Virus genome (UHGV): UHGV-1639218
Length of the DNA: 22,738 bases
Strand: one strand, 5' to 3'
Origin: a virus
In this document: positions 7,092-14,483 of the stretch, piece after piece
Layout: every line of letters begins with the position of its first letter
Position numbering within the stretch: the first letter of the stretch is position 1
Program-made: the position numbers and the translations under genes
Notes under the pieces: model-generated
What the model was told of the DNA's origin: nothing
What the model saw: the letters and a program-made list of their open reading frames with translations, nothing else
The model's database searches: none

Positions 7092-7132
7092 ATTTATTTC
7101 CTTTACTGATTGCCATATGACGGGGATTTTAC

Positions 7133-7498
7133 ATGGCTGAGCTTCGTACACTCCAGAGCAGAATCAAAACACTGAATACCCGACGGGTGAATATTCTGAA
7201 GGGTGAACAGCGTCGTGTCAGTGGCAGTGCACGTGTTTCCCTCAAGCGTCATATCTGGCTCAGGGACGCCGGGCAGTGCCGTCTCTGTGGTCGTGTGGTT
7301 GGCCTCTGTGACAGTGAACTCGATCACCGAATTGCACTTCAGTTCGGTGGTGGTAATGAGGAGACGAATCTCTGGACGCTCTGTACCGAATGCCATCGAC
7401 AAAAGTCTGCTCGTGAAGCGGCGGGTGGTATGCCGGACCCGACGCTGCCGGAGGTGTCCGGAGGTAGTGGCAGAGCGGACGACATCATCGGACTGTAA
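7133..7498 (+). CDS. HNH endonuclease (cos/terminase-associated, HK97 gp74-like)
   Basis: 121-aa ORF with an HNH motif (CRLCGR....ELDHRIALQFGG.....NLWTLCTECHRQKS). Located immediately upstream of the cos-like region and TerS, as in HK97-like cos phages. Confidence 0.8.
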   Translation: MAELRTLQSRIKTLNTRRVNILKGEQRRVSGSARVSLKRHIWLRDAGQCRLCGRVVGLCDSELDHRIALQFGGGNEETNLWTLCTECHRQKSAREAAGGMPDPTLPEVSGGSGRADDIIGL

Positions 7499-7587
7499 CC
7501 CGACCGGGGGGGGTATCATTCGGCGTAAAAAACGATCGCTCCGGACACCGCGCCCCCTCTCACGCAGAGAAAAAATTCCCGTTTCAG

Positions 7588-7715
7588 GCCAGTTAACATG
7601 TTAACTGGCTGTCCGGGCATTTTTGCGGTTTTTATCTTTATTATTCAGTTTGTTGTGCGAAAAAAAATGTTAACTGGCTTTTTCAGAAAATGTTAACCAG
7701 GCAGCAGTTAACATT
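7588..7715. repeat. Cluster of GTTAAC-containing repeats, including a perfect 22-bp palindrome, upstream of TerS (candidate cosB-like terminase binding sites)
   Basis: Perfect palindrome GCCAGTTAACATGTTAACTGGC (7588-7609). Further copies of AATGTTAAC(T/C)(G/A)G at 7667-7678 and 7690-7700, and inverted at 7705-7715. Confidence 0.5.
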
Positions 7716-7788
7716 TGCGGCATGAGACGCCGGGAAAAATGGGCTGAACCATACCCGGCTGAGTGCGTTCTGGACCCGGGAGGAGGCT

Positions 7789-8352
7789 GTGCTGACAACG
7801 CAAAAACGAAAATTTGCGCTGGCGCTCATGTCCGGGAAAAACAAAACAGCGTCAGCCATTGCCGCCGGTTATTCGGCGAAGACCGCCAGGGTTAAAGGCT
7901 CGCAGCTGGCAAAAGATCCGGAGGTGCTCGCGTTTATAGCCCGTAAACAGTGCGAAACGGTGGAGGTGGATGAGGTTCCTGTTTACCGGCAGAAAAAATC
8001 AGAGCAGGAGGATAAACCCCGTCGTCGTGAGGCGGCTGCAATACCACAGCCGGACGAAAACAATCCGGAGATGCCACCGCCCGCGGTGATGTCTCATGGT
8101 ATTGAATATATGGAGGATGGTCTTCCCGATCCGGTGAAAGCTATGGGGCAGATCCTGGTGGAAAACCTCAGCATTGATCCGAAACTGGCACTGGATGCGG
8201 CCTGGCGTCTGGCGCAGTTCACGCACCATAAAAAAGGGGATACCGGTAAAAAATCGGCAAAAGGTGATGCCGCGAAAAAAGCGGCTAACCGTTTTGCGGT
8301 GCCACCGCCACCCCGACTGGTGGTGAATAACGATAATGAGGGCAACGGATGA
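7789..8352 (+). CDS. Terminase small subunit
   Basis: GTG start with GGAGGAGG upstream. N-terminal HTH-like segment (KRKFALALMSGKNKTASAIAAGYSAKTARVKGSQLAKDPEV) typical of phage TerS. Stop overlaps the TerL start. Confidence 0.8.
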   Translation: MLTTQKRKFALALMSGKNKTASAIAAGYSAKTARVKGSQLAKDPEVLAFIARKQCETVEVDEVPVYRQKKSEQEDKPRRREAAAIPQPDENNPEMPPPAVMSHGIEYMEDGLPDPVKAMGQILVENLSIDPKLALDAAWRLAQFTHHKKGDTGKKSAKGDAAKKAANRFAVPPPPRLVVNNDNEGNG

Positions 8353-10010
8353 TACCTGTATGGAGCACAGCCTGCCCGGACTGGGCAGAGCGCCTGAAAA
8401 AGGGGCTGTCGATTATTCCGGCTCCGATTTATCCGGACCAGGCCGCACATGCCCTGGCGATTTTTAAACAACTGCGGATTGTGGATGCACCGGGTAGCCC
8501 GACGTTCGGGGAGTCCTGTGCACAGTGGGTGTTTGACCTGGTGGCGGCTCTGTTTGGCTCCTACGATGCGCAGACCGGTGTCCGCCATATCAAGGAAGTG
8601 TTCATTCTGATACCCAAAAAAAACAGCAAGTCCACACTGGCCGCCGGGATCATGATGACGGCGCTGTTACTGAACTGGCGGCAGGCGGCGGGTTACACGA
8701 TTCTGGCCCCGACTGTGGAGGTGGCAGCCAACGCCTTCAATCCTGCCAGGGATATGGTACGACGGGACGATGATCTGGATGACCTCTGTCAGGTGCAGAC
8801 ACATATCCGGACCATCACCCACCGGGTGACGGACACCACCCTGAAGGTGGTGGCAGCCGATCCGAATACGGTGTCCGGTATCAAGTCCGTGGGGACGCTG
8901 ATTGATGAGTTGTGGCTGTTTGGCAAGCAGTACAAGGCGGAGGACATGTTACGTGAAGCCATAGGCGGCCTTGCCTCCCGCCCGGAAGGGTTTGTGGTGT
9001 ATACGACCACCCAGTCGAATGAACCGCCAGCCGGGGTGTTCAGACAGAAACTGCAGTACGCCCGGGATGTGCGCGACGGCAAAATTAATGATCCGCACTT
9101 TCTGCCGGTGATATTTGAACACCCTCCTGAAATGGTGGAAAGCGGGGCTCACCTGCTGATGGAAAACCTCGCCATGGTCAATCCGAATCTCGGCTATTCA
9201 GTGGATGAGGCCTTTCTGTACCGGGAGTACCGTAAAGCCCGGGAAGCCGGTGAAGAGACATTCCGGGGGTTCATGTCAAAACACGCCAATGTGGAAATTG
9301 GTCTTGCCCTGCGCTCTGACCGCTGGGCGGGGGCTGATTTCTGGGAAGAGCAGGGCCGTTGTATCAGCCTGGACGATATCCTGCGTCGTGCTGATGTGGT
9401 GACGGTGGGGATTGACGGCGGAGGGCTGGATGATCTGCTGGGGATGTATGTGATTGGGCGTGACCGGGAGACCCGCGAATGGCTGGGCTGGGGCCATGCC
9501 TGGGCGCATGAAACCGCGGTGGTCCGACGGAAGAGCGAGGCGTCCCGGTTTCAGGATCTTGTTGCCTGTGGAGATATGACCATTGTCCGGCGTGTCGGGG
9601 ATGACACGGCGGAAGTGGCGGAATATGTGCGTCGCATTCATGAGGCTGAGTTACTGGACCATATCGGTATTGACCCGTCAGGGGTGGGACAGATTCTGGA
9701 TTCACTGGCGGAAGCCGGGATCCCCGACGGAATTGTGGTGGGGATAAGCCAGGGCTGGAAACTGGGCGGGGCCATTAAAACCACCGAGCGCAAACTGGCT
9801 GAAGGGGTGCTGGTGCATGGTGACCAGCCCCTGATGGCCTGGTGTGTCGGCAATGCCCGGGTGGAGCCTAAAGGTAACGCCATTCTTATCACCAAACAGG
9901 CCAGTGGACGGGGAAAAATTGACCCGCTGATGGCGCTGTTCAATGCGGTCTCCCTGATGTCCCTTAACCCGGAACCGAAAAAGAAAGAATATGCGGTTTT
10001 TTTCATATAA
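8349..10010 (+). CDS. Terminase large subunit
   Basis: 553-aa ORF overlapping the TerS stop (ATGA). P-loop-like segment (VFILIPKKNSKST) and overall length typical of HK97-type TerL. Confidence 0.85.
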   Translation: MIPVWSTACPDWAERLKKGLSIIPAPIYPDQAAHALAIFKQLRIVDAPGSPTFGESCAQWVFDLVAALFGSYDAQTGVRHIKEVFILIPKKNSKSTLAAGIMMTALLLNWRQAAGYTILAPTVEVAANAFNPARDMVRRDDDLDDLCQVQTHIRTITHRVTDTTLKVVAADPNTVSGIKSVGTLIDELWLFGKQYKAEDMLREAIGGLASRPEGFVVYTTTQSNEPPAGVFRQKLQYARDVRDGKINDPHFLPVIFEHPPEMVESGAHLLMENLAMVNPNLGYSVDEAFLYREYRKAREAGEETFRGFMSKHANVEIGLALRSDRWAGADFWEEQGRCISLDDILRRADVVTVGIDGGGLDDLLGMYVIGRDRETREWLGWGHAWAHETAVVRRKSEASRFQDLVACGDMTIVRRVGDDTAEVAEYVRRIHEAELLDHIGIDPSGVGQILDSLAEAGIPDGIVVGISQGWKLGGAIKTTERKLAEGVLVHGDQPLMAWCVGNARVEPKGNAILITKQASGRGKIDPLMALFNAVSLMSLNPEPKKKEYAVFFI

Positions 10011-10073: not shown

Positions 10074-12011
10074 GTGACTCTTAAACGGGCCTGTTCCCTG
10101 CTGACGGTGAAATCCTTCAGTGAGGATGAACGGGTGATCACCGGGATTGCGTCAACGCCTTCTCCGGATCGGGATGGTGACATCCTGGAGCCGGAGGGCG
10201 CGGAGTTTGGCAGTGCGATCCCGTTTCTCTGGCAGCATGACCATTCCCGCCCGGTGGGGCAGTGTACGGTGCGCCGGGTCAGCGAAGGGCTGGAAATCAC
10301 GGCAACACTGGTGAAGCCCGTACCGGATATGCCGTCGCAACTGGCTGCCCGGCTGGATGAGGTCTGGGCGGCCATTAAGACCGGGCTGGTCAGGGGGCTG
10401 TCCGTGGGCTTCCGTCCCCATGAATACACCTTTCTGGACGGAGGCGGACTGCATTTTCTGCGCTGGGAACTGATGGAGGTGTCTGCCGTCACCGTGCCCG
10501 CGAATGCGGAATGCACCATCCGGACCATTAAATCTTACGACCGCCCGTTTTCTGCCGCGTCCGGCAACCGGAAACCGGTGGTGAAAATCGCATCTTCTGC
10601 CGGCGCTGCGGCACAGTCAACAACCGTTTTTCATAAGGAAAAGACCATAATGAATATTGGCGAACAGATTAAAAGTTTTGAAAACAAGCGTGCAGCGCTG
10701 GCAGCCTCCCTTGAGGAGGTCATGACCAAAGCCGCAGAGGAAGGGCGCACGCTGGATGTGGAGGAGGAAGAGCATTACGACAACACCGCAGCGGAAATCC
10801 GTCAGGTGGATGCGCACCTGAAGCGCCTGCGTGAACTGGAAGCCGGTAAGGCCGCCACGGCGCAGCCGGTGAAACAGGCCGGTAACGGGAATGTGGCCGC
10901 GGTGGCTTCTGCGCCGGTGATCCGTGTGGAGCAGAAACTGGATAAGGGGATTGGCTTCGCCCGCTTTGCCAAATCGCTGGCTGCGGCTAAAGGCGTCCGA
11001 TCTGAAGCCCTGGAAGTGGCCCGTCGTCAGTATCCGGATGACAGTCGTCTGCATCATGTCCTGAAATCGGCAGTGGGCGCGGGGACCACCACGGATCCGC
11101 AGTGGGCAGGCAGCCTGTCTGAATATCAGGAATACGCACAGGACTTTATTGATTACCTGCGTCCGCAGACCATTATCGGGCGATTTGGTCAGGGCGGGAT
11201 CCCTGCACTTCGTCAGGTGCCATTCAATATCCGTGTGCACGCCCAGGTGTCCGGCGGTGCTGCCGGCTGGGTGGGTGAGGGTAAGGCAAAACCCCTGACG
11301 AAGTTTGATTTTGAATCCATCACCTTCAGTCATGCGAAGGTGTCGGCCATTGCGGTACTGACGGAAGAATTGATCCGTTTTTCCAGTCCGGCTGCTGATG
11401 CACTGGTCCGTAATGCGCTGGCGGAAGCGGTGGTGGCGCGTCTGGATACAGACTTTGTGGACCCGAAAAAAGCCGCAGTGGCAGATGTCTCCCCGGCGTC
11501 CATCACCCATGATGTGAAGGGCACGGCATCAACCGGTAACCCGGATGCGGATGCAGAGGCTGCGTTTGGACAGTTTGTGGCAGCAAACCTGCAGCCCACC
11601 GGTGCGGTCTGGCTGATGTCCAGCACCAATGCCCTGGCACTGTCCATGCGTAAAAATGCGCTGGGTCAGAAGGAATACCCGGACATGACCCTGCTGGGTG
11701 GCTCCTTCCAGGGGCTGCCGGTGATTGTCTCCCAGTACGTGGGTGACCAGCTGGTGCTGGTGAATGCCCCGGATATTTATCTGGCGGATGACGGCGGCGT
11801 GGCAGTGGATATGTCCCGCGAGGCATCACTGGAAATGCAGTCTGAGCCGACCGGCGACAGTACCACGCCGTCCCCGGTGGAGCTGGTTTCCATGTTCCAG
11901 ACAGGCAGCGTGGCCATCCGTGCGGAGCGCTGGATCAACTGGCGTCGTCGCCGTACCGCGGCGGTGGCGGTGATCACCGGAGTGAACTACGGCAGTGCGT
12001 CCGGCGGCTGA
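10074..12011 (+). CDS. HK97-type prohead protease fused in frame to the major capsid protein (645 aa); internal start at 10650 would give the capsid protein alone (453 aa)
   Basis: N-terminal about 190 aa carry HK97 prohead-protease motifs (WQHDHSRPVG, GLSVGF, HFLRWELMEVSAVTVPAN). From ATG 10650 (preceded by AAGGAAAA) a scaffold-like coiled-coil segment and an HK97-fold capsid domain follow. Single uninterrupted ORF in the track. Confidence 0.75.
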   Translation: MTLKRACSLLTVKSFSEDERVITGIASTPSPDRDGDILEPEGAEFGSAIPFLWQHDHSRPVGQCTVRRVSEGLEITATLVKPVPDMPSQLAARLDEVWAAIKTGLVRGLSVGFRPHEYTFLDGGGLHFLRWELMEVSAVTVPANAECTIRTIKSYDRPFSAASGNRKPVVKIASSAGAAAQSTTVFHKEKTIMNIGEQIKSFENKRAALAASLEEVMTKAAEEGRTLDVEEEEHYDNTAAEIRQVDAHLKRLRELEAGKAATAQPVKQAGNGNVAAVASAPVIRVEQKLDKGIGFARFAKSLAAAKGVRSEALEVARRQYPDDSRLHHVLKSAVGAGTTTDPQWAGSLSEYQEYAQDFIDYLRPQTIIGRFGQGGIPALRQVPFNIRVHAQVSGGAAGWVGEGKAKPLTKFDFESITFSHAKVSAIAVLTEELIRFSSPAADALVRNALAEAVVARLDTDFVDPKKAAVADVSPASITHDVKGTASTGNPDADAEAAFGQFVAANLQPTGAVWLMSSTNALALSMRKNALGQKEYPDMTLLGGSFQGLPVIVSQYVGDQLVLVNAPDIYLADDGGVAVDMSREASLEMQSEPTGDSTTPSPVELVSMFQTGSVAIRAERWINWRRRRTAAVAVITGVNYGSASGG

Positions 12012-12222: not shown

Positions 12223-13587
12223 ATGTGGAACCTTTTACGGCGAACCCGAAAAAACCAGAAATCAGGACGTGACGTAAGAGAGGCGGGCTGGACCAGCCTG
12301 TTTCAGGCGGTGGCTGAGCCCTTTTCCGGCGCCTGGCAGCAGGGCGTGAAAGCCGATCCTGAAGCCGTCCTCTCCTTTCATGCGGTGTTTGCATGTATTT
12401 CGCTGATATCCCAGGATATCGCCAAAATGCGGCTGCGTCTTATGCAGACGGATGCGCATGGGATACGCAGGGAAACGCGCCGGGGGGATATTGCCCGCCT
12501 CTGTCGTCGTCCCAACGCCCAGCAGAACCGCATCCAGTTTTTTGAACTGTGGCTGAACGCCAAACTGCGTCACGGCAATACGGTGGTGCTGAAAATCCGT
12601 AATGCCCGGGGGCAGATCAAAGAACTGCGTATTCTGGACTGGAGCCGGGTTGAACCTCTGGTGGCGGATGACGGCGAGGTGTTCTACCGCATCACGCCGG
12701 ACCGGAACTGCGGGATCACGGAGGCGGTGACGGTGCCTGCCCGGGAAGTGATCCACGACCGGTTTAACTGTTTTTTTCATCCGCTTATAGGATTGCCGCC
12801 GGTGTATGCCGCCGGGCTGGCGGCCACGCAGGGGCATCATATTCAGGAAAATTCGACGTCTTTTTTCAGAAATGGCGGCAGGCCGTCCGGGGTGATTGAG
12901 ATCCCCGGCAGTATTACGGAAGAAAATGCGAAAAAACTGAAGAGCAACTGGGACAGCGGGTATACAGGCGAAAATGCGGGGAAAACGGCCATTCTGAGCA
13001 ACGGGGCAAAATACAACCCCACGACGTTTTCACCTGTGGATGCGCAGACGGTGGAACAACTGAAGATGACCGCTGAAATTGTCTGTTCGGTGTTCCGTGT
13101 CCCGGCCTACAAGATTGGCGTGGGACAACCGCCTTCCAGTGACAACGTGGAGGCGCTGGAGCAGCAGTATTATTCCCAGTGTCTGCAGACGCTGATTGAG
13201 TCCATTGAACTGTTACTGGATGAGGCGCTGGAAACGGGGGAAAACGAGAGTACAGAATTTGATGTCACCACGCTGCTGAGAATGGACAGTGAGCGGCGCA
13301 TGAAAACGCTGGGGGATGCGGTGAAAAATACGCTTCTCACGCCCAATGAGGCCCGTAAACGGGAGAACCTGCCGCCCCTGGCCGGCGGTGATGCACTGTA
13401 TCTTCAGCAGCAGAACTACAGTCTGGAGGCGCTGTCCCGTCGTGATGCCCGTGAGGATCCGTTCTCGTCTGCCGGGAAAACAGTTTCATCACAGCTGCCT
13501 GACGGCGCATCTGACGGTAATAAGGCAATCAGTGAAACAGAGCGTGATGCGGTGAAAGCGATGTTCAGGGGGATACTGAGAAAATGA
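12223..13587 (+). CDS. Portal protein (HK97 family)
   Basis: 454-aa ORF with portal-like N-terminus (SG..V......AVFACISLISQDIAK) and a conserved central block (FFRNGGRPSGVIEIPGSITEENAKKLKSNWDSGYTGENAGKTAILSNGAKY). Stop overlaps the next gene (ATGA). Confidence 0.7.
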   Translation: MWNLLRRTRKNQKSGRDVREAGWTSLFQAVAEPFSGAWQQGVKADPEAVLSFHAVFACISLISQDIAKMRLRLMQTDAHGIRRETRRGDIARLCRRPNAQQNRIQFFELWLNAKLRHGNTVVLKIRNARGQIKELRILDWSRVEPLVADDGEVFYRITPDRNCGITEAVTVPAREVIHDRFNCFFHPLIGLPPVYAAGLAATQGHHIQENSTSFFRNGGRPSGVIEIPGSITEENAKKLKSNWDSGYTGENAGKTAILSNGAKYNPTTFSPVDAQTVEQLKMTAEIVCSVFRVPAYKIGVGQPPSSDNVEALEQQYYSQCLQTLIESIELLLDEALETGENESTEFDVTTLLRMDSERRMKTLGDAVKNTLLTPNEARKRENLPPLAGGDALYLQQQNYSLEALSRRDAREDPFSSAGKTVSSQLPDGASDGNKAISETERDAVKAMFRGILRK

Positions 13588-14483
13588 CGGAACGGGAACT
13601 GTCCATTATTCGTGCACTGGGAGAAGAATTCTCCACAGTGCTGGCGGATTTACAGCGCACATTTGAGGGGAAGATGGCCTCGCAGGCACAAGCGTTTGAA
13701 GAGAAACTGACTTCCCTGTCGGCGGTATTACAGAAGCATGTGACGGTGGATGAGGTGCGTCCGGTTCTGCAGGCGATGGTGGATGACGCTGTGGGGGCCA
13801 TTCCGGTACCGCGTGATGGTCGTGATTATGATCCGGATGTACTGCAGCAGGCGGTGAATGATGCGGTCGCAAATATTCCGCAGCCGGCGGACGGTAAAAG
13901 TCTCACCCCGGATGATGTGCGTCCGATGCTTGAACAGATGGTGAAGGAGGCTGTAAGCCATATCCCTGTTCCGCGTGATGGTCGTGACTACGATCCGGAT
14001 GTTCTGCAGAAGGCGGTTCTGGATGCGGTGAGTGCCCTGCCGGCTCCGCAGGACGGGCGTGATGCCACGGCTCTGGAAATACTCCCCGCCATTGACGATC
14101 AAAAATCCTTTCCCCGGGGCACGTATGCCACACACCAGGGCGGACTCTGGCGGGCGTATGAAAAAACGCACGGGATGCGGGGATGGGAATGCCTGGTTGA
14201 CGGGGTGGCGGATATTGACGTCAGCATGACGGGTGAGCGGTTGTTCTCTGTGGTGGTCCGGCAGAGCAGTGGCCAGCGTACGGAAAAAACATTTTCCCTG
14301 CCGGTGATGCTCTACCGCGGTGTGTTCAGAGCCGGTGAAACCTACCACCCCGGTGATACGGTGACGTGGGGGGGCTCGCTGTGGCACTGCAACAGTATGA
14401 CCGAAGATAAACCCGGAGAAGCTCATTCATCAGCCTGGACCCTGGCTGCAAAACGTGGGCGGGATGCAGGAGGCGGAAAATGA
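13584..14483 (+). CDS. Hypothetical head-module protein with tandem 54-aa repeats
   Basis: 299-aa ORF coupled to portal. Contains two 162-bp tandem repeats (13755-13916 and 13917-about 14078) encoding VRP.L..MV..AV..IPVPRDGRDYDPDVLQ.AV.DAV...P.P.DG. Lies between portal and head-tail connector. Confidence 0.4.
   Translation: MTERELSIIRALGEEFSTVLADLQRTFEGKMASQAQAFEEKLTSLSAVLQKHVTVDEVRPVLQAMVDDAVGAIPVPRDGRDYDPDVLQQAVNDAVANIPQPADGKSLTPDDVRPMLEQMVKEAVSHIPVPRDGRDYDPDVLQKAVLDAVSALPAPQDGRDATALEILPAIDDQKSFPRGTYATHQGGLWRAYEKTHGMRGWECLVDGVADIDVSMTGERLFSVVVRQSSGQRTEKTFSLPVMLYRGVFRAGETYHPGDTVTWGGSLWHCNSMTEDKPGEAHSSAWTLAAKRGRDAGGGK
13755..14078 (+). repeat. In-frame tandem repeat, 2 x 162 bp
   Basis: Unit starting GTGCGTCCG at 13755 and again at 13917; period 162 bp (54 codons). 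Confidence 0.8.

Follow-up and report, generated by a model that had tools for sequence, protein, structure and literature searches.

A predicted cos region with an array of likely small terminase sites in a Stx-type (Pankowvirus-like) prophage

Organization of the locus

The window, i.e. the whole 22,738-nt stretch of the virus genome UHGV-1639218 that was analyzed, carries at 7499-7788 a gap of 290 bp between the reading frame of an HNH endonuclease and the gene of the small terminase subunit (TerS). Downstream are located the large terminase subunit (TerL), a protease-capsid fusion and the portal (Table 1), and upstream Q, a NanS-like esterase, a holin, a lysozyme and Rz. Both flanking genes are as originally predicted, the HNH and TerS assignments being sustained by PF01844 and PF03592. 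An HNH gene adjoins the cos region on its upstream side likewise in HK97, Bcep176 and Salmonella phage FSL SP-016. Regarding TerL, BLASTP against HK97 gp2 gives an E-value of 2e-11 with 23% identity over 461 alignment columns, and the protein is 48-59% identical to TerLs of Burkholderia, Pseudomonas, Acinetobacter and Xanthomonas phages, its relatives including Bcep176, Xp10 and fLi-Aba03, a near-identical sibling of the cos-mapped fEg-Aba01. Over the HNH-to-TerS segment (7100-8400), Stx-converting siphophages and prophages of the genus Pankowvirus, among them BP-4795, 1717, 2851, YYZ-2008 and the Stx2a_WGPS series, share 90-97% identity with the window.

Table 1. Genes and sequence elements in and around 7499-7788 (positions are those of the window).
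Feature	Positions	Strand	Description
HNH endonuclease	7133-7498	+	121 aa; packaging-machine accessory nuclease; PF01844 E 6e-8; phrog_589 E 1e-43
Upstream conserved element CCGGGGGGGGTATCAT	7504-7519	+	G8 run at 7506-7513
Predicted 10-nt 3' cohesive end CGCGCCCCCT (cosN)	7549-7558	+	By homology to mapped termini
Left-end block CTCACGCAGAG-AAAAAA-TTCCC	7559-7582	+	Predicted first DNA of the packaged chromosome
Perfect 22-bp palindrome GCCAGTTAACATGTTAACTGGC	7588-7609		Two GTTAAC hexamers inside
AT-rich spacer	7610-7665	+	67% A+T vs 46% window-wide
T5 tracts	7620-7624, 7629-7633		In AT-rich spacer
A8 run	7660-7667		Begins in AT-rich spacer, runs into third motif copy
Third motif copy AATGTTAACTGG	7666-7677	+	Orientation of the palindrome right arm; as AATGTTAACTGGC, 7666-7678
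Fourth motif copy AATGTTAACCAG	7689-7700		
Fifth motif copy CAGTTAACATT	7705-7715		Opposite orientation
Inverted pair of copies 4 and 5, AATGTTAAC-CAGGCAGCA-GTTAACATTT	7689-7716		9-nt spacer; found by repeat search
TerS Shine-Dalgarno sequence GGAGGAGG	7779-7786	+	2 nt upstream of GTG 7789
Small terminase TerS	7789-8352	+	187 aa; GTG start; PF03592 E 1e-8, residues 2-57
Large terminase TerL	8349-10010	+	553 aa; HK97 gp2 class; PF03354, PF20441
Protease-capsid fusion	10074-12011		
Portal	12223-13587		

The spacer had been singled out for a run of eight G, a perfect 22-bp palindrome and four more copies of a GTTAAC-containing motif. The G8 run and the palindrome are present, an inverted-repeat search returning 11+11 nt with 100% complementarity and no spacer. 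Beyond the palindrome, three further copies are counted instead of four; those given as 7690-7700 and 7705-7715 are present, whereas the one placed at 7667-7678 is off by one base and actually occupies 7666-7677. The motif is clustered far beyond chance. Indeed, TGTTAACYRG has four matches window-wide, all within 7589-7700, for an expectation of 0.07, and none of 100 shuffles reaches four, while GTTAAC occurs nine times in 22.7 kb for 3.2 expected, five of these inside 121 bp (at 7592, 7600, 7669, 7692 and 7707). Runs of seven G give three overlapping matches in the window against about seven expected; the G-run is thus statistically ordinary by itself and draws its significance only from its conserved position in relatives. 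An Rfam scan of 7300-8000 gave zero matches, and a promoter and terminator scan returned no terminator and just two weak promoter-like matches on the minus strand, one of which is the motif itself. The IHF consensus WATCAANNNNTTR has no match in 7499-7788 with up to one mismatch allowed, and a small ORF at 7722-7895 (57 aa), located in the inserted DNA described below, has no PHROG match.

The predicted cut site

The location of the cut can be predicted by homology to relatives whose genome ends have been mapped. For the induced Stx1 phage Lys8385Vzw (MT225100), 3' cohesive ends with the cos sequence CGCCCCCCCT have been reported, as determined by PhageTerm (PMC7946995). The record of this phage ends with ...GGACACCGCCCCCCCT and starts with CTCACGCAGAG... 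(in longer form, CTCACGCAGAGAAAAAATTCCCGTTTCAGGGCAGTTAACATGTTAACTGGC), and it aligns base for base with the window at the junction between 7558 and 7559. Its overhang differs by one base from CGCGCCCCCT, it carries the same motif array as the window, and few substitutions are found in the alignment across the region. In the GenBank record of Bcep176, the identical 10 bp CGCACGTTCC are present at both ends, in columns homologous to 7549-7558 and in the context ...GGGGAGGGGG, 33 nt, CGCACGTTCC, then CTCACGCGCAGAAAATTTTCCC...GTTAATGGCTTTAAC, with the breaks on either side of the repeat; four other Burkholderia phage records start or end at most 6 nt from this break. The Xp10 record ends with ...GGACAGTCT and starts with CCCATTCGCAGAAAAATT, while the HK97 record ends with ...G9-ATCAAATC...ATGACCGCCGCCAAA. 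In a 20-sequence alignment, the breaks of Bcep176, Xp10 and HK97 project onto the window columns 7548 to 7549 and 7558 to 7559. Furthermore, the overhang CGCCCCCCAT of Acinetobacter phage fEg-Aba01 has been confirmed by annealing on gel (PMC7354433), and both this phage and Lys8385Vzw share the cos core of the window.

As the termini of these relatives align to 7549-7558, the cohesive end of the window is predicted to be CGCGCCCCCT, with nicks between 7558 and 7559 on the top strand and between 7548 and 7549 on the bottom strand. The uncertainty is about 2-4 nt: the starts of three metagenome contigs (L263, L270 and L297) coincide with the predicted cut to within a few bases and, since L263 starts 4 nt upstream of the predicted nick, the exact position is uncertain by a few bases. 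The segment 7499-7788 is therefore predicted, by homology to mapped termini, to be a cos region cut at or near 7549-7558 to give 10-nt 3' ends. While it had been held that the nick sites could not be read from the sequence, homology places them between the G-run and the palindrome and at neither of the two. The G-run was considered as the nick site and rejected, since the mapped ends lie 35-45 nt downstream.

The original prediction of cos termini in this spacer, with no headful signature, holds for Lys8385Vzw, the ends of which align to 7549-7558. Headful packaging, with the repeats serving as a pac site, might have been suspected from TerS, a member of the same family as those of the pac phages SPP1 and SF6. 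We consider it hardly conceivable in view of the defined 3' cohesive ends that PhageTerm assigns to Lys8385Vzw (PMC7946995), the HK97-class TerL with its adjacent HNH endonuclease, the 10-bp terminal repeat of Bcep176 and the fEg-Aba01 ends, which anneal on gel (PMC7354433).

Other genome records were less useful. Those of phi330, phiBt-TXDOH and vB_PR5 have arbitrary breaks inside or just before TerS and are uninformative on cos, and the record of CF53a has a snap-back artefact at its end. For phiE125, a candidate cos, GCGGGCGAAG, can be compared with GCGGGCGATG beside the G-run of locus L152; it conflicts with the Bcep176 terminal repeat and was dropped. In the literature searched on Pankowvirus, phi330 and SfIV, no cos mapping was found for the group of the window.

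A conserved core layout

From Enterobacterales to Burkholderiales and Pseudomonas, the HNH-TerS spacer follows one layout. It opens with the G-run, followed by GT(A), a spacer of about 35 nt and GAC(A)C, which precedes the overhang; next come CTCACGCxCAG, an A/T tract and (T)CCC, then the Shine-Dalgarno sequence of TerS and finally GT(T/A)AA, the start codon and TTAAC. A G-run is found at the matching position in Enterobacterales, Burkholderiales, Pseudomonas, Xp10 and HK97, and in 116 of 118 distinct sequences its end lies 40-45 nt from the left-end anchor. In the window, 35 nt separate the end of the run from the predicted bottom-strand nick and 45 nt from the top-strand nick; in HK97, the run (G9) lies about 32-35 nt upstream of the bottom-strand nick, the same distance as in the window. 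The G-run thus appears to be a fixed-distance element on the last-packaged side, where it might have a function in packaging. No published mention of it was found in the literature searched, the HK97 papers giving only the TerS site at +15 to +29.

On the other side of the cut, the left-end block is near-invariant in the 20-sequence family alignment and has a conservation of 0.97 in E. coli copies. Its A/T tract is about as distant from the cut as the HK97 TerS site, and it has been shown that HK97 TerS reads a single 15-bp site with an A-tract at +15 to +29 (PMC11331095). Because HK97 thus relies on one site near the cut, the A-tract block at 7563-7582 could, in place of the array, be the primary recognition site. 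Close E. coli copies do not help to set the array apart from its surroundings, since conservation is uniformly high (0.92-0.98 per column everywhere, array included, in 38 distinct copies; 0.93-0.975 for the array and the DNA around it). Within the array, the inverted pair of copies 4 and 5 is the most conserved part (0.975); every variant type retains it, with a core altered in both arms.

Motifs at the start of the small terminase gene

In Salmonella phage FSL SP-016, as in about 80 further relatives, the HNH and TerS genes are separated by a mere 106 bp or so, which hold a single motif pair. In these short-type relatives, the ATG of TerS lies inside GTAAAC-ATG-TTAAC, the homologue of the center of the window palindrome; more generally, GT(A/T)AAC-ATG-TTAAC spans the TerS start codon and, in most relatives, the motif pair overlaps the ribosome-binding site and the start. 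ATG 7598 of the window aligns with the TerS ATG of FSL SP-016 and about 80 other loci. At the palindrome, the Shine-Dalgarno sequence of the relatives (GGAGGG) has been lost and the reading frame from ATG 7598 stops short. The TerS start of the window, GTG 7789 with its own GGAGGAGG, is located about 190 bp beyond the ancestral position, and the intervening DNA holds the three extra copies.

The association of the motif with the TerS start is family-wide. At least two GTTAA/TTAAC pentamers are present between -70 and +14 of the start in 76 of 82 distinct relatives vs 1 of 82 control stretches. The motif is not simply produced by the codons M-L-T: at the TerS start, Leu is encoded by the rare TTA in 93 of 97 cases, and in 32 of 33 among loci with at least 58% G+C, and this constraint is relaxed where the motifs lie upstream of the gene (CTG in the window, TTG in L291). 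Upstream motif repeats are also found in L296 and L297, where the TerS starts differ. In several relatives, the motifs are direct repeats that make hairpins impossible, for instance GTTACAC twice in L237 and GTTAAAGG two to three times in L291.

These direct repeats bear on the possibility that the GTTAAC repeats act as RNA rather than as packaging signals. In a late transcript running from the lysis genes via cos into TerS, copy 1 could pair with copies 2, 3 or 4 and copy 5 with copy 4, and such alternative hairpins would tune TerS translation. The ancestral motif pair brackets the Shine-Dalgarno sequence and the start codon of TerS, the palindrome arms change in a compensatory fashion between variants, and RNA from 7560-7800 folds with hairpins exactly at the repeats (z = -1.96). 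However, this z-score is modest, as 6 of 200 shuffles fold equally well, and Rfam has no match. Moreover, the L237 and L291 motifs are unable to pair, the ancestral GTAAACATGTTAAC has no loop and just 5-6 AU-rich pairs, and copy 3 repeats copy 2 in direct orientation, together with its flanks. Finally, 70-200 nt separate the array of the window from the actual Shine-Dalgarno sequence downstream, and hence direct occlusion of the latter is impossible. We regard an RNA function as quite improbable.

Covariation of the array with the small terminase

The N-terminal 56 residues of TerS constitute a helix-turn-helix domain of the SF6/SPP1 G1P type (PF03592). In the AlphaFold model, residues 1-50 have a pLDDT of 91-96, and Foldseek matches 4zc3 and 2cmp with target TM-scores of 0.81-0.84 and rmsd of 1.6-2.5 Å, the N-terminal domain superimposing on the DNA-binding domain of the SF6 small terminase (4zc3) with a target TM-score of 0.84 and an rmsd of 1.6 Å. 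Against HK97 gp1, TerS gave no similarity.

Three long-type variants keep the five-site architecture with all the copies altered together with the TerS helix-turn-helix. The window has the palindrome and copy cores CCAGTTAACA and TGTTAACTGG and the sequence AKTARVKG in the TerS helix-turn-helix; in L216, the cores are GGTGGTTAACA and TGTTAACCACC and the TerS sequence GKTARVKG; in L217 and L303, they are TATAAACA for the palindrome and TGTTTATA and TGTTTAC for the copies, with EKSARCKG in TerS. TARVKG is thus paired with TGTTAAC, and SARCKG with TGTTTAT or TGTTTAC, and the flank of copy 3 covaries with the palindrome arms in L216, L217 and L303. The case of L303 is particularly informative. Its HNH protein is 98% identical to that of the window and the DNA from the cos core to the A-tract is near-identical (two substitutions), whereas beyond the A-tract it carries a type-2 array and a type-2 TerS N-terminus. 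L303 is a natural recombinant, and the array therefore travels with TerS and not with the HNH gene or the cut site. In addition, in L304, which has the same TerS helix-turn-helix as the window, 47 of 48 positions of the motif cores are identical vs 107 of 140 in the surrounding array and leader DNA (Fisher p 2e-4). The covariation between helix-turn-helix and motif is seen in three or four lineages only, and hitch-hiking through physical linkage could account for part of it.

As the copies covary with the TerS N-terminus and not with the HNH protein, and are conserved where the spacers diverge, binding by TerS is likely, and the GTTAAC array is likely to be a set of cosB-like TerS sites. This had been proposed from the arrangement of the repeats upstream of the small terminase gene, and the proposal fits the motif pairs across the family, the TTA constraint, the covariation with the helix-turn-helix, the recombinant and the conservation of the cores.

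Two other readings of the repeats have to be weighed against this evidence. They may bind another protein, be it a nucleoid protein of the host, one of the other two packaging proteins (HNH endonuclease and TerL) or a regulator of the phage, and constitute an architectural or regulatory element of cos. The AT-rich tract DNA around the sites is typical of nucleoid-protein targets, and the lambda cos employs the host IHF. Yet the array type tracks the TerS N-terminus and not the HNH protein, as L303 illustrates with its other array, a host protein would not need GTTAAC in some and GTTTAT/GTTTAC cores in others within E. coli, the IHF consensus is absent at up to one mismatch, and the motif goes with TerS genes of the Terminase_2 type all the way from E. 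coli to Burkholderia and Pseudomonas. Another protein as the ligand seems unlikely to us. Alternatively, the extra copies might be a functionless duplication relic of the ~190-bp insertion, only the core cos from the G-run to the A-tract (7504-7582) being of importance. Salmonella and other short-type relatives indeed make do with 106 bp between the genes and one motif pair, and the high conservation in close E. coli copies, being uniform, is uninformative in this respect. Nevertheless, the five-site architecture is kept in three variant types despite their different cores, the L304 cores are 98% identical vs 76% for spacers and leader (p 2e-4), and 1278 of 5426 complete E. coli genomes contain the region. 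We hold a mere relic to be very improbable.

Comparison with known packaging systems

The closest parallel is the HK97 cos with its HNH (gp74)-assisted terminase (Kala et al. 2014; PMC9410871; PMC11331095), in which the HNH gene likewise lies directly upstream of cos and the terminase genes and the TerL is homologous (E 2e-11). Both systems have a 10-nt 3' overhang with the core ...GAC/CGCnnnnnnn/ (slashes marking the cuts; the window ends being deduced by homology to relatives) and an A/T tract 10-30 bp downstream of the cut. In contrast, the TerS of HK97 is unrelated in sequence, that of the window belonging to the Terminase_2/SF6 family with an external helix-turn-helix. Furthermore, HK97 TerS uses one 15-bp site at +15 to +29, unlike the multi-site GTTAAC array at +30 to +158 of the window, and GTTAAC repeats are absent from the first 100 bp of HK97. 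The original description of the region as an HK97-style cos is thus apt for the HNH-assisted machinery and the 10-nt 3' overhang, but not for TerS, which is of the SPP1/SF6 G1P type and not of the HK97 gp1 type.

With lambda, the likeness is one of layout. The lambda cos comprises cosQ, cosN and cosB, the latter with the Nu1 sites R3, R2 and R1 and the IHF site I1, and packaging specificity classes have been described for lambda, 21 and N15 (PMC4669245). Here too, an upstream element is followed by a predicted nick site, an oriented array of likely TerS sites, including an inverted arrangement, and the small terminase gene, with five oriented motif copies at +30 to +158 between the predicted nick and the TerS gene. 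In lambda likewise, array and TerS DNA-binding domain vary jointly as a specificity module. However, the lambda ends are 12-nt 5' overhangs, made by a gpA-type TerL without an HNH, as opposed to the 3' overhangs (in the relative), HK97-class TerL and HNH found here; its Nu1 is a winged-helix protein of another family than the window TerS; and its IHF site is essential, whereas none was found in the window. The resemblance is one of architecture, not of descent.

The third comparison is with the pac site of SPP1 and SF6 (pacL-pacC-pacR, bound by G1P; PMC6316719), the TerS of which has the same DNA-binding fold as the one described here. It has been shown that SPP1 gp1 binds pac DNA overlapping its own ribosome-binding site and 5' coding region (PMC6316719). 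Recognition DNA over the RBS and 5' end of TerS is also what the short-type relatives would have, while in the window the sites are shifted upstream of the gene. SPP1 is a headful packager making one imprecise cut per concatemer, unlike the group of the window, which has precise cohesive ends (in relatives) and an HNH partner.

Proposed packaging mechanism

Taken as a whole, we consider it probable that 7499-7788 is the cos site of a lambdoid, Stx-type (Pankowvirus-like) prophage, with the array bound by TerS. The packaging machine would consist of an HK97-class TerL, the HNH endonuclease and an SPP1/SF6-type TerS, and it would cut concatemers at CGCGCCCCCT (7549-7558) to leave 10-nt 3' overhangs. 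TerS oligomers may grip the GTTAAC-type sites through their N-terminal helix-turn-helix domains, the sites beginning 30 bp to the right of the predicted cut with the palindrome, followed by one single site and one inverted pair, with AT-rich DNA in between. Since no IHF site is present, the AT-rich spacer with its T-tracts possibly assists TerS binding, and it may act by intrinsic DNA bending. Once bound, TerS would anchor TerL and the HNH endonuclease over the cut site, and packaging would run rightwards into TerS, TerL and the head genes. Regarding the G-run, which lies 35 nt left of the predicted cut on what would be the last-packaged end, it may be read by TerL or HNH, or else serve in a cosQ-like termination. 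In this E. coli lineage, about 190 bp separate the ancestral motif position from TerS, and they hold three more sites, a new Shine-Dalgarno sequence and the GTG start.

Perspectives

The cohesive end of this phage group has already been published, and the cos site, which is well supported, is of a familiar type, with some details that are new. In the passages of the Lys8385Vzw (PMC7946995) and fEg-Aba01 (PMC7354433) papers located by keyword, only the overhang is given, with no G-run, A-tract block, array or displaced TerS start. More broadly, the literature searched yielded nothing on how the sub-sites are laid out, on the shared G-run, on the displacement of the TerS start or on a cassette of co-varying array and TerS.

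We tentatively propose, as a possibility, that the array makes up, together with the helix-turn-helix of TerS, a cassette that sets packaging specificity and can be exchanged and, separately, that the G-run is a general recognition or termination element of HNH-assisted terminases. If so, the cassette would recombine at a fixed boundary just past the A-tract (~7582), and the same cut site, HNH and TerL would be combined with different recognition types, namely TGTTAAC-TGG, TGTTAAC-CACC and TGTTTAT/TGTTTAC. Where several Stx-type prophages reside in one host (up to 7 copies per genome), the recognition type would then decide which of them can package or hijack the DNA of the others. As for the G-run, located 32-35 nt from the bottom-strand nick, it would be a so far undescribed element that the window has in common with HK97, Xp10 and Burkholderia phages.

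The predicted cut site gives the natural genome orientation for these phages and, together with the likely array, would make it possible to predict which defective prophages can still be packaged in trans. Cut site and array also allow cross-packaging between co-resident prophages to be tested directly, a matter of relevance to the spread of toxin genes. In addition, the locus offers a natural comparison for the HK97 model, with the same TerL/HNH chemistry and the G-run associated with a different type of small terminase. The module is widespread, as about one in four complete E. coli genomes has it, with Shiga toxin prophages among the carriers; the 290-bp region, found in 1278 of 5426 such genomes, often occurs in several copies, with a maximum of 7 in one genome. 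As a minor observation, the 100% match in E. coli strain cM8a is limited to the 290-bp query, the prophage differing elsewhere.

Sequence exchange and length variation in the cos region

L303, a homologous locus of strain STEC1588 (NZ_CP129263.1, 397-680), is a natural recombinant. Compared with the window, it is almost identical from HNH through the A-tract and, beyond, carries the type-2 motif array together with the type-2 TerS N-terminus, a sequence switch that marks a recombination boundary at ~7582 of the window. A second E. coli TerS lineage, found in two IMG/VR loci (L237/L238) and having a TerS that starts with MALTTKKK (45-49% identical), possesses the same cut-site core as elsewhere and, downstream of it, two direct AAAAGTTACAC repeats which are 16 bp apart, lie about 40-70 nt upstream of TerS and replace the GTTAAC pair.

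Regarding the G-run (7506-7513 in the window), its length ranges from 7 to 11 in otherwise near-identical copies (homologues L003-L122 and L303-L305), and this variation could reflect either real slippage or homopolymer sequencing errors. If slippage is real, the spacing between the G-run and the cut is not strictly fixed. In the PPompW prophage (L300, LC567818.1, 746-2204), the IS110-family element ISEc20 abuts the cos G-run at a position homologous to ~7510 of the window. The gene order of this locus is Q, tRNAs, ISEc20, GGGGGATCAT..., cos and TerS, and the lysis genes and HNH are hence absent there. Since G-runs flank the element on both sides, there is a hint that ISEc20 targets such runs.

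Gene content of the prophage copy

Features of the window outside the cos region
Feature	Position	Remarks
Q antiterminator	159-692	
NanS-like SASA esterase	1463-3424	downstream of Q
Portal ORF	from 12223	454 aa; aligns to PHROG portal profile
ORF after portal	13584-14483	299 aa; 4-nt overlap with portal ORF
Tail gene	20709-21050	precedes porin gene
OmpC-like porin gene	21253-22389	PF00267, E 3e-142

Neither stx nor tRNA genes are present between Q and the NanS-like esterase; as far as the window extends, this prophage copy thus belongs to the non-toxigenic members of the Stx-phage family. The portal ORF covers only positions 1-451 of the PHROG profile, whose length is 859, and its homologue in E. 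coli strain cM8a is annotated by PGAP as a frameshifted portal. A pseudogene, a programmed frameshift or a fused reference could account for this.

In the related prophage of cM8a, the genes are ordered gpM-like, ompC and gpL, an arrangement as in the window, and by this order the porin gene is a moron within the tail operon. As OmpC is the receptor of phi330, a related phage (PMC12502783), a role of the prophage-borne porin in superinfection exclusion is suggested.
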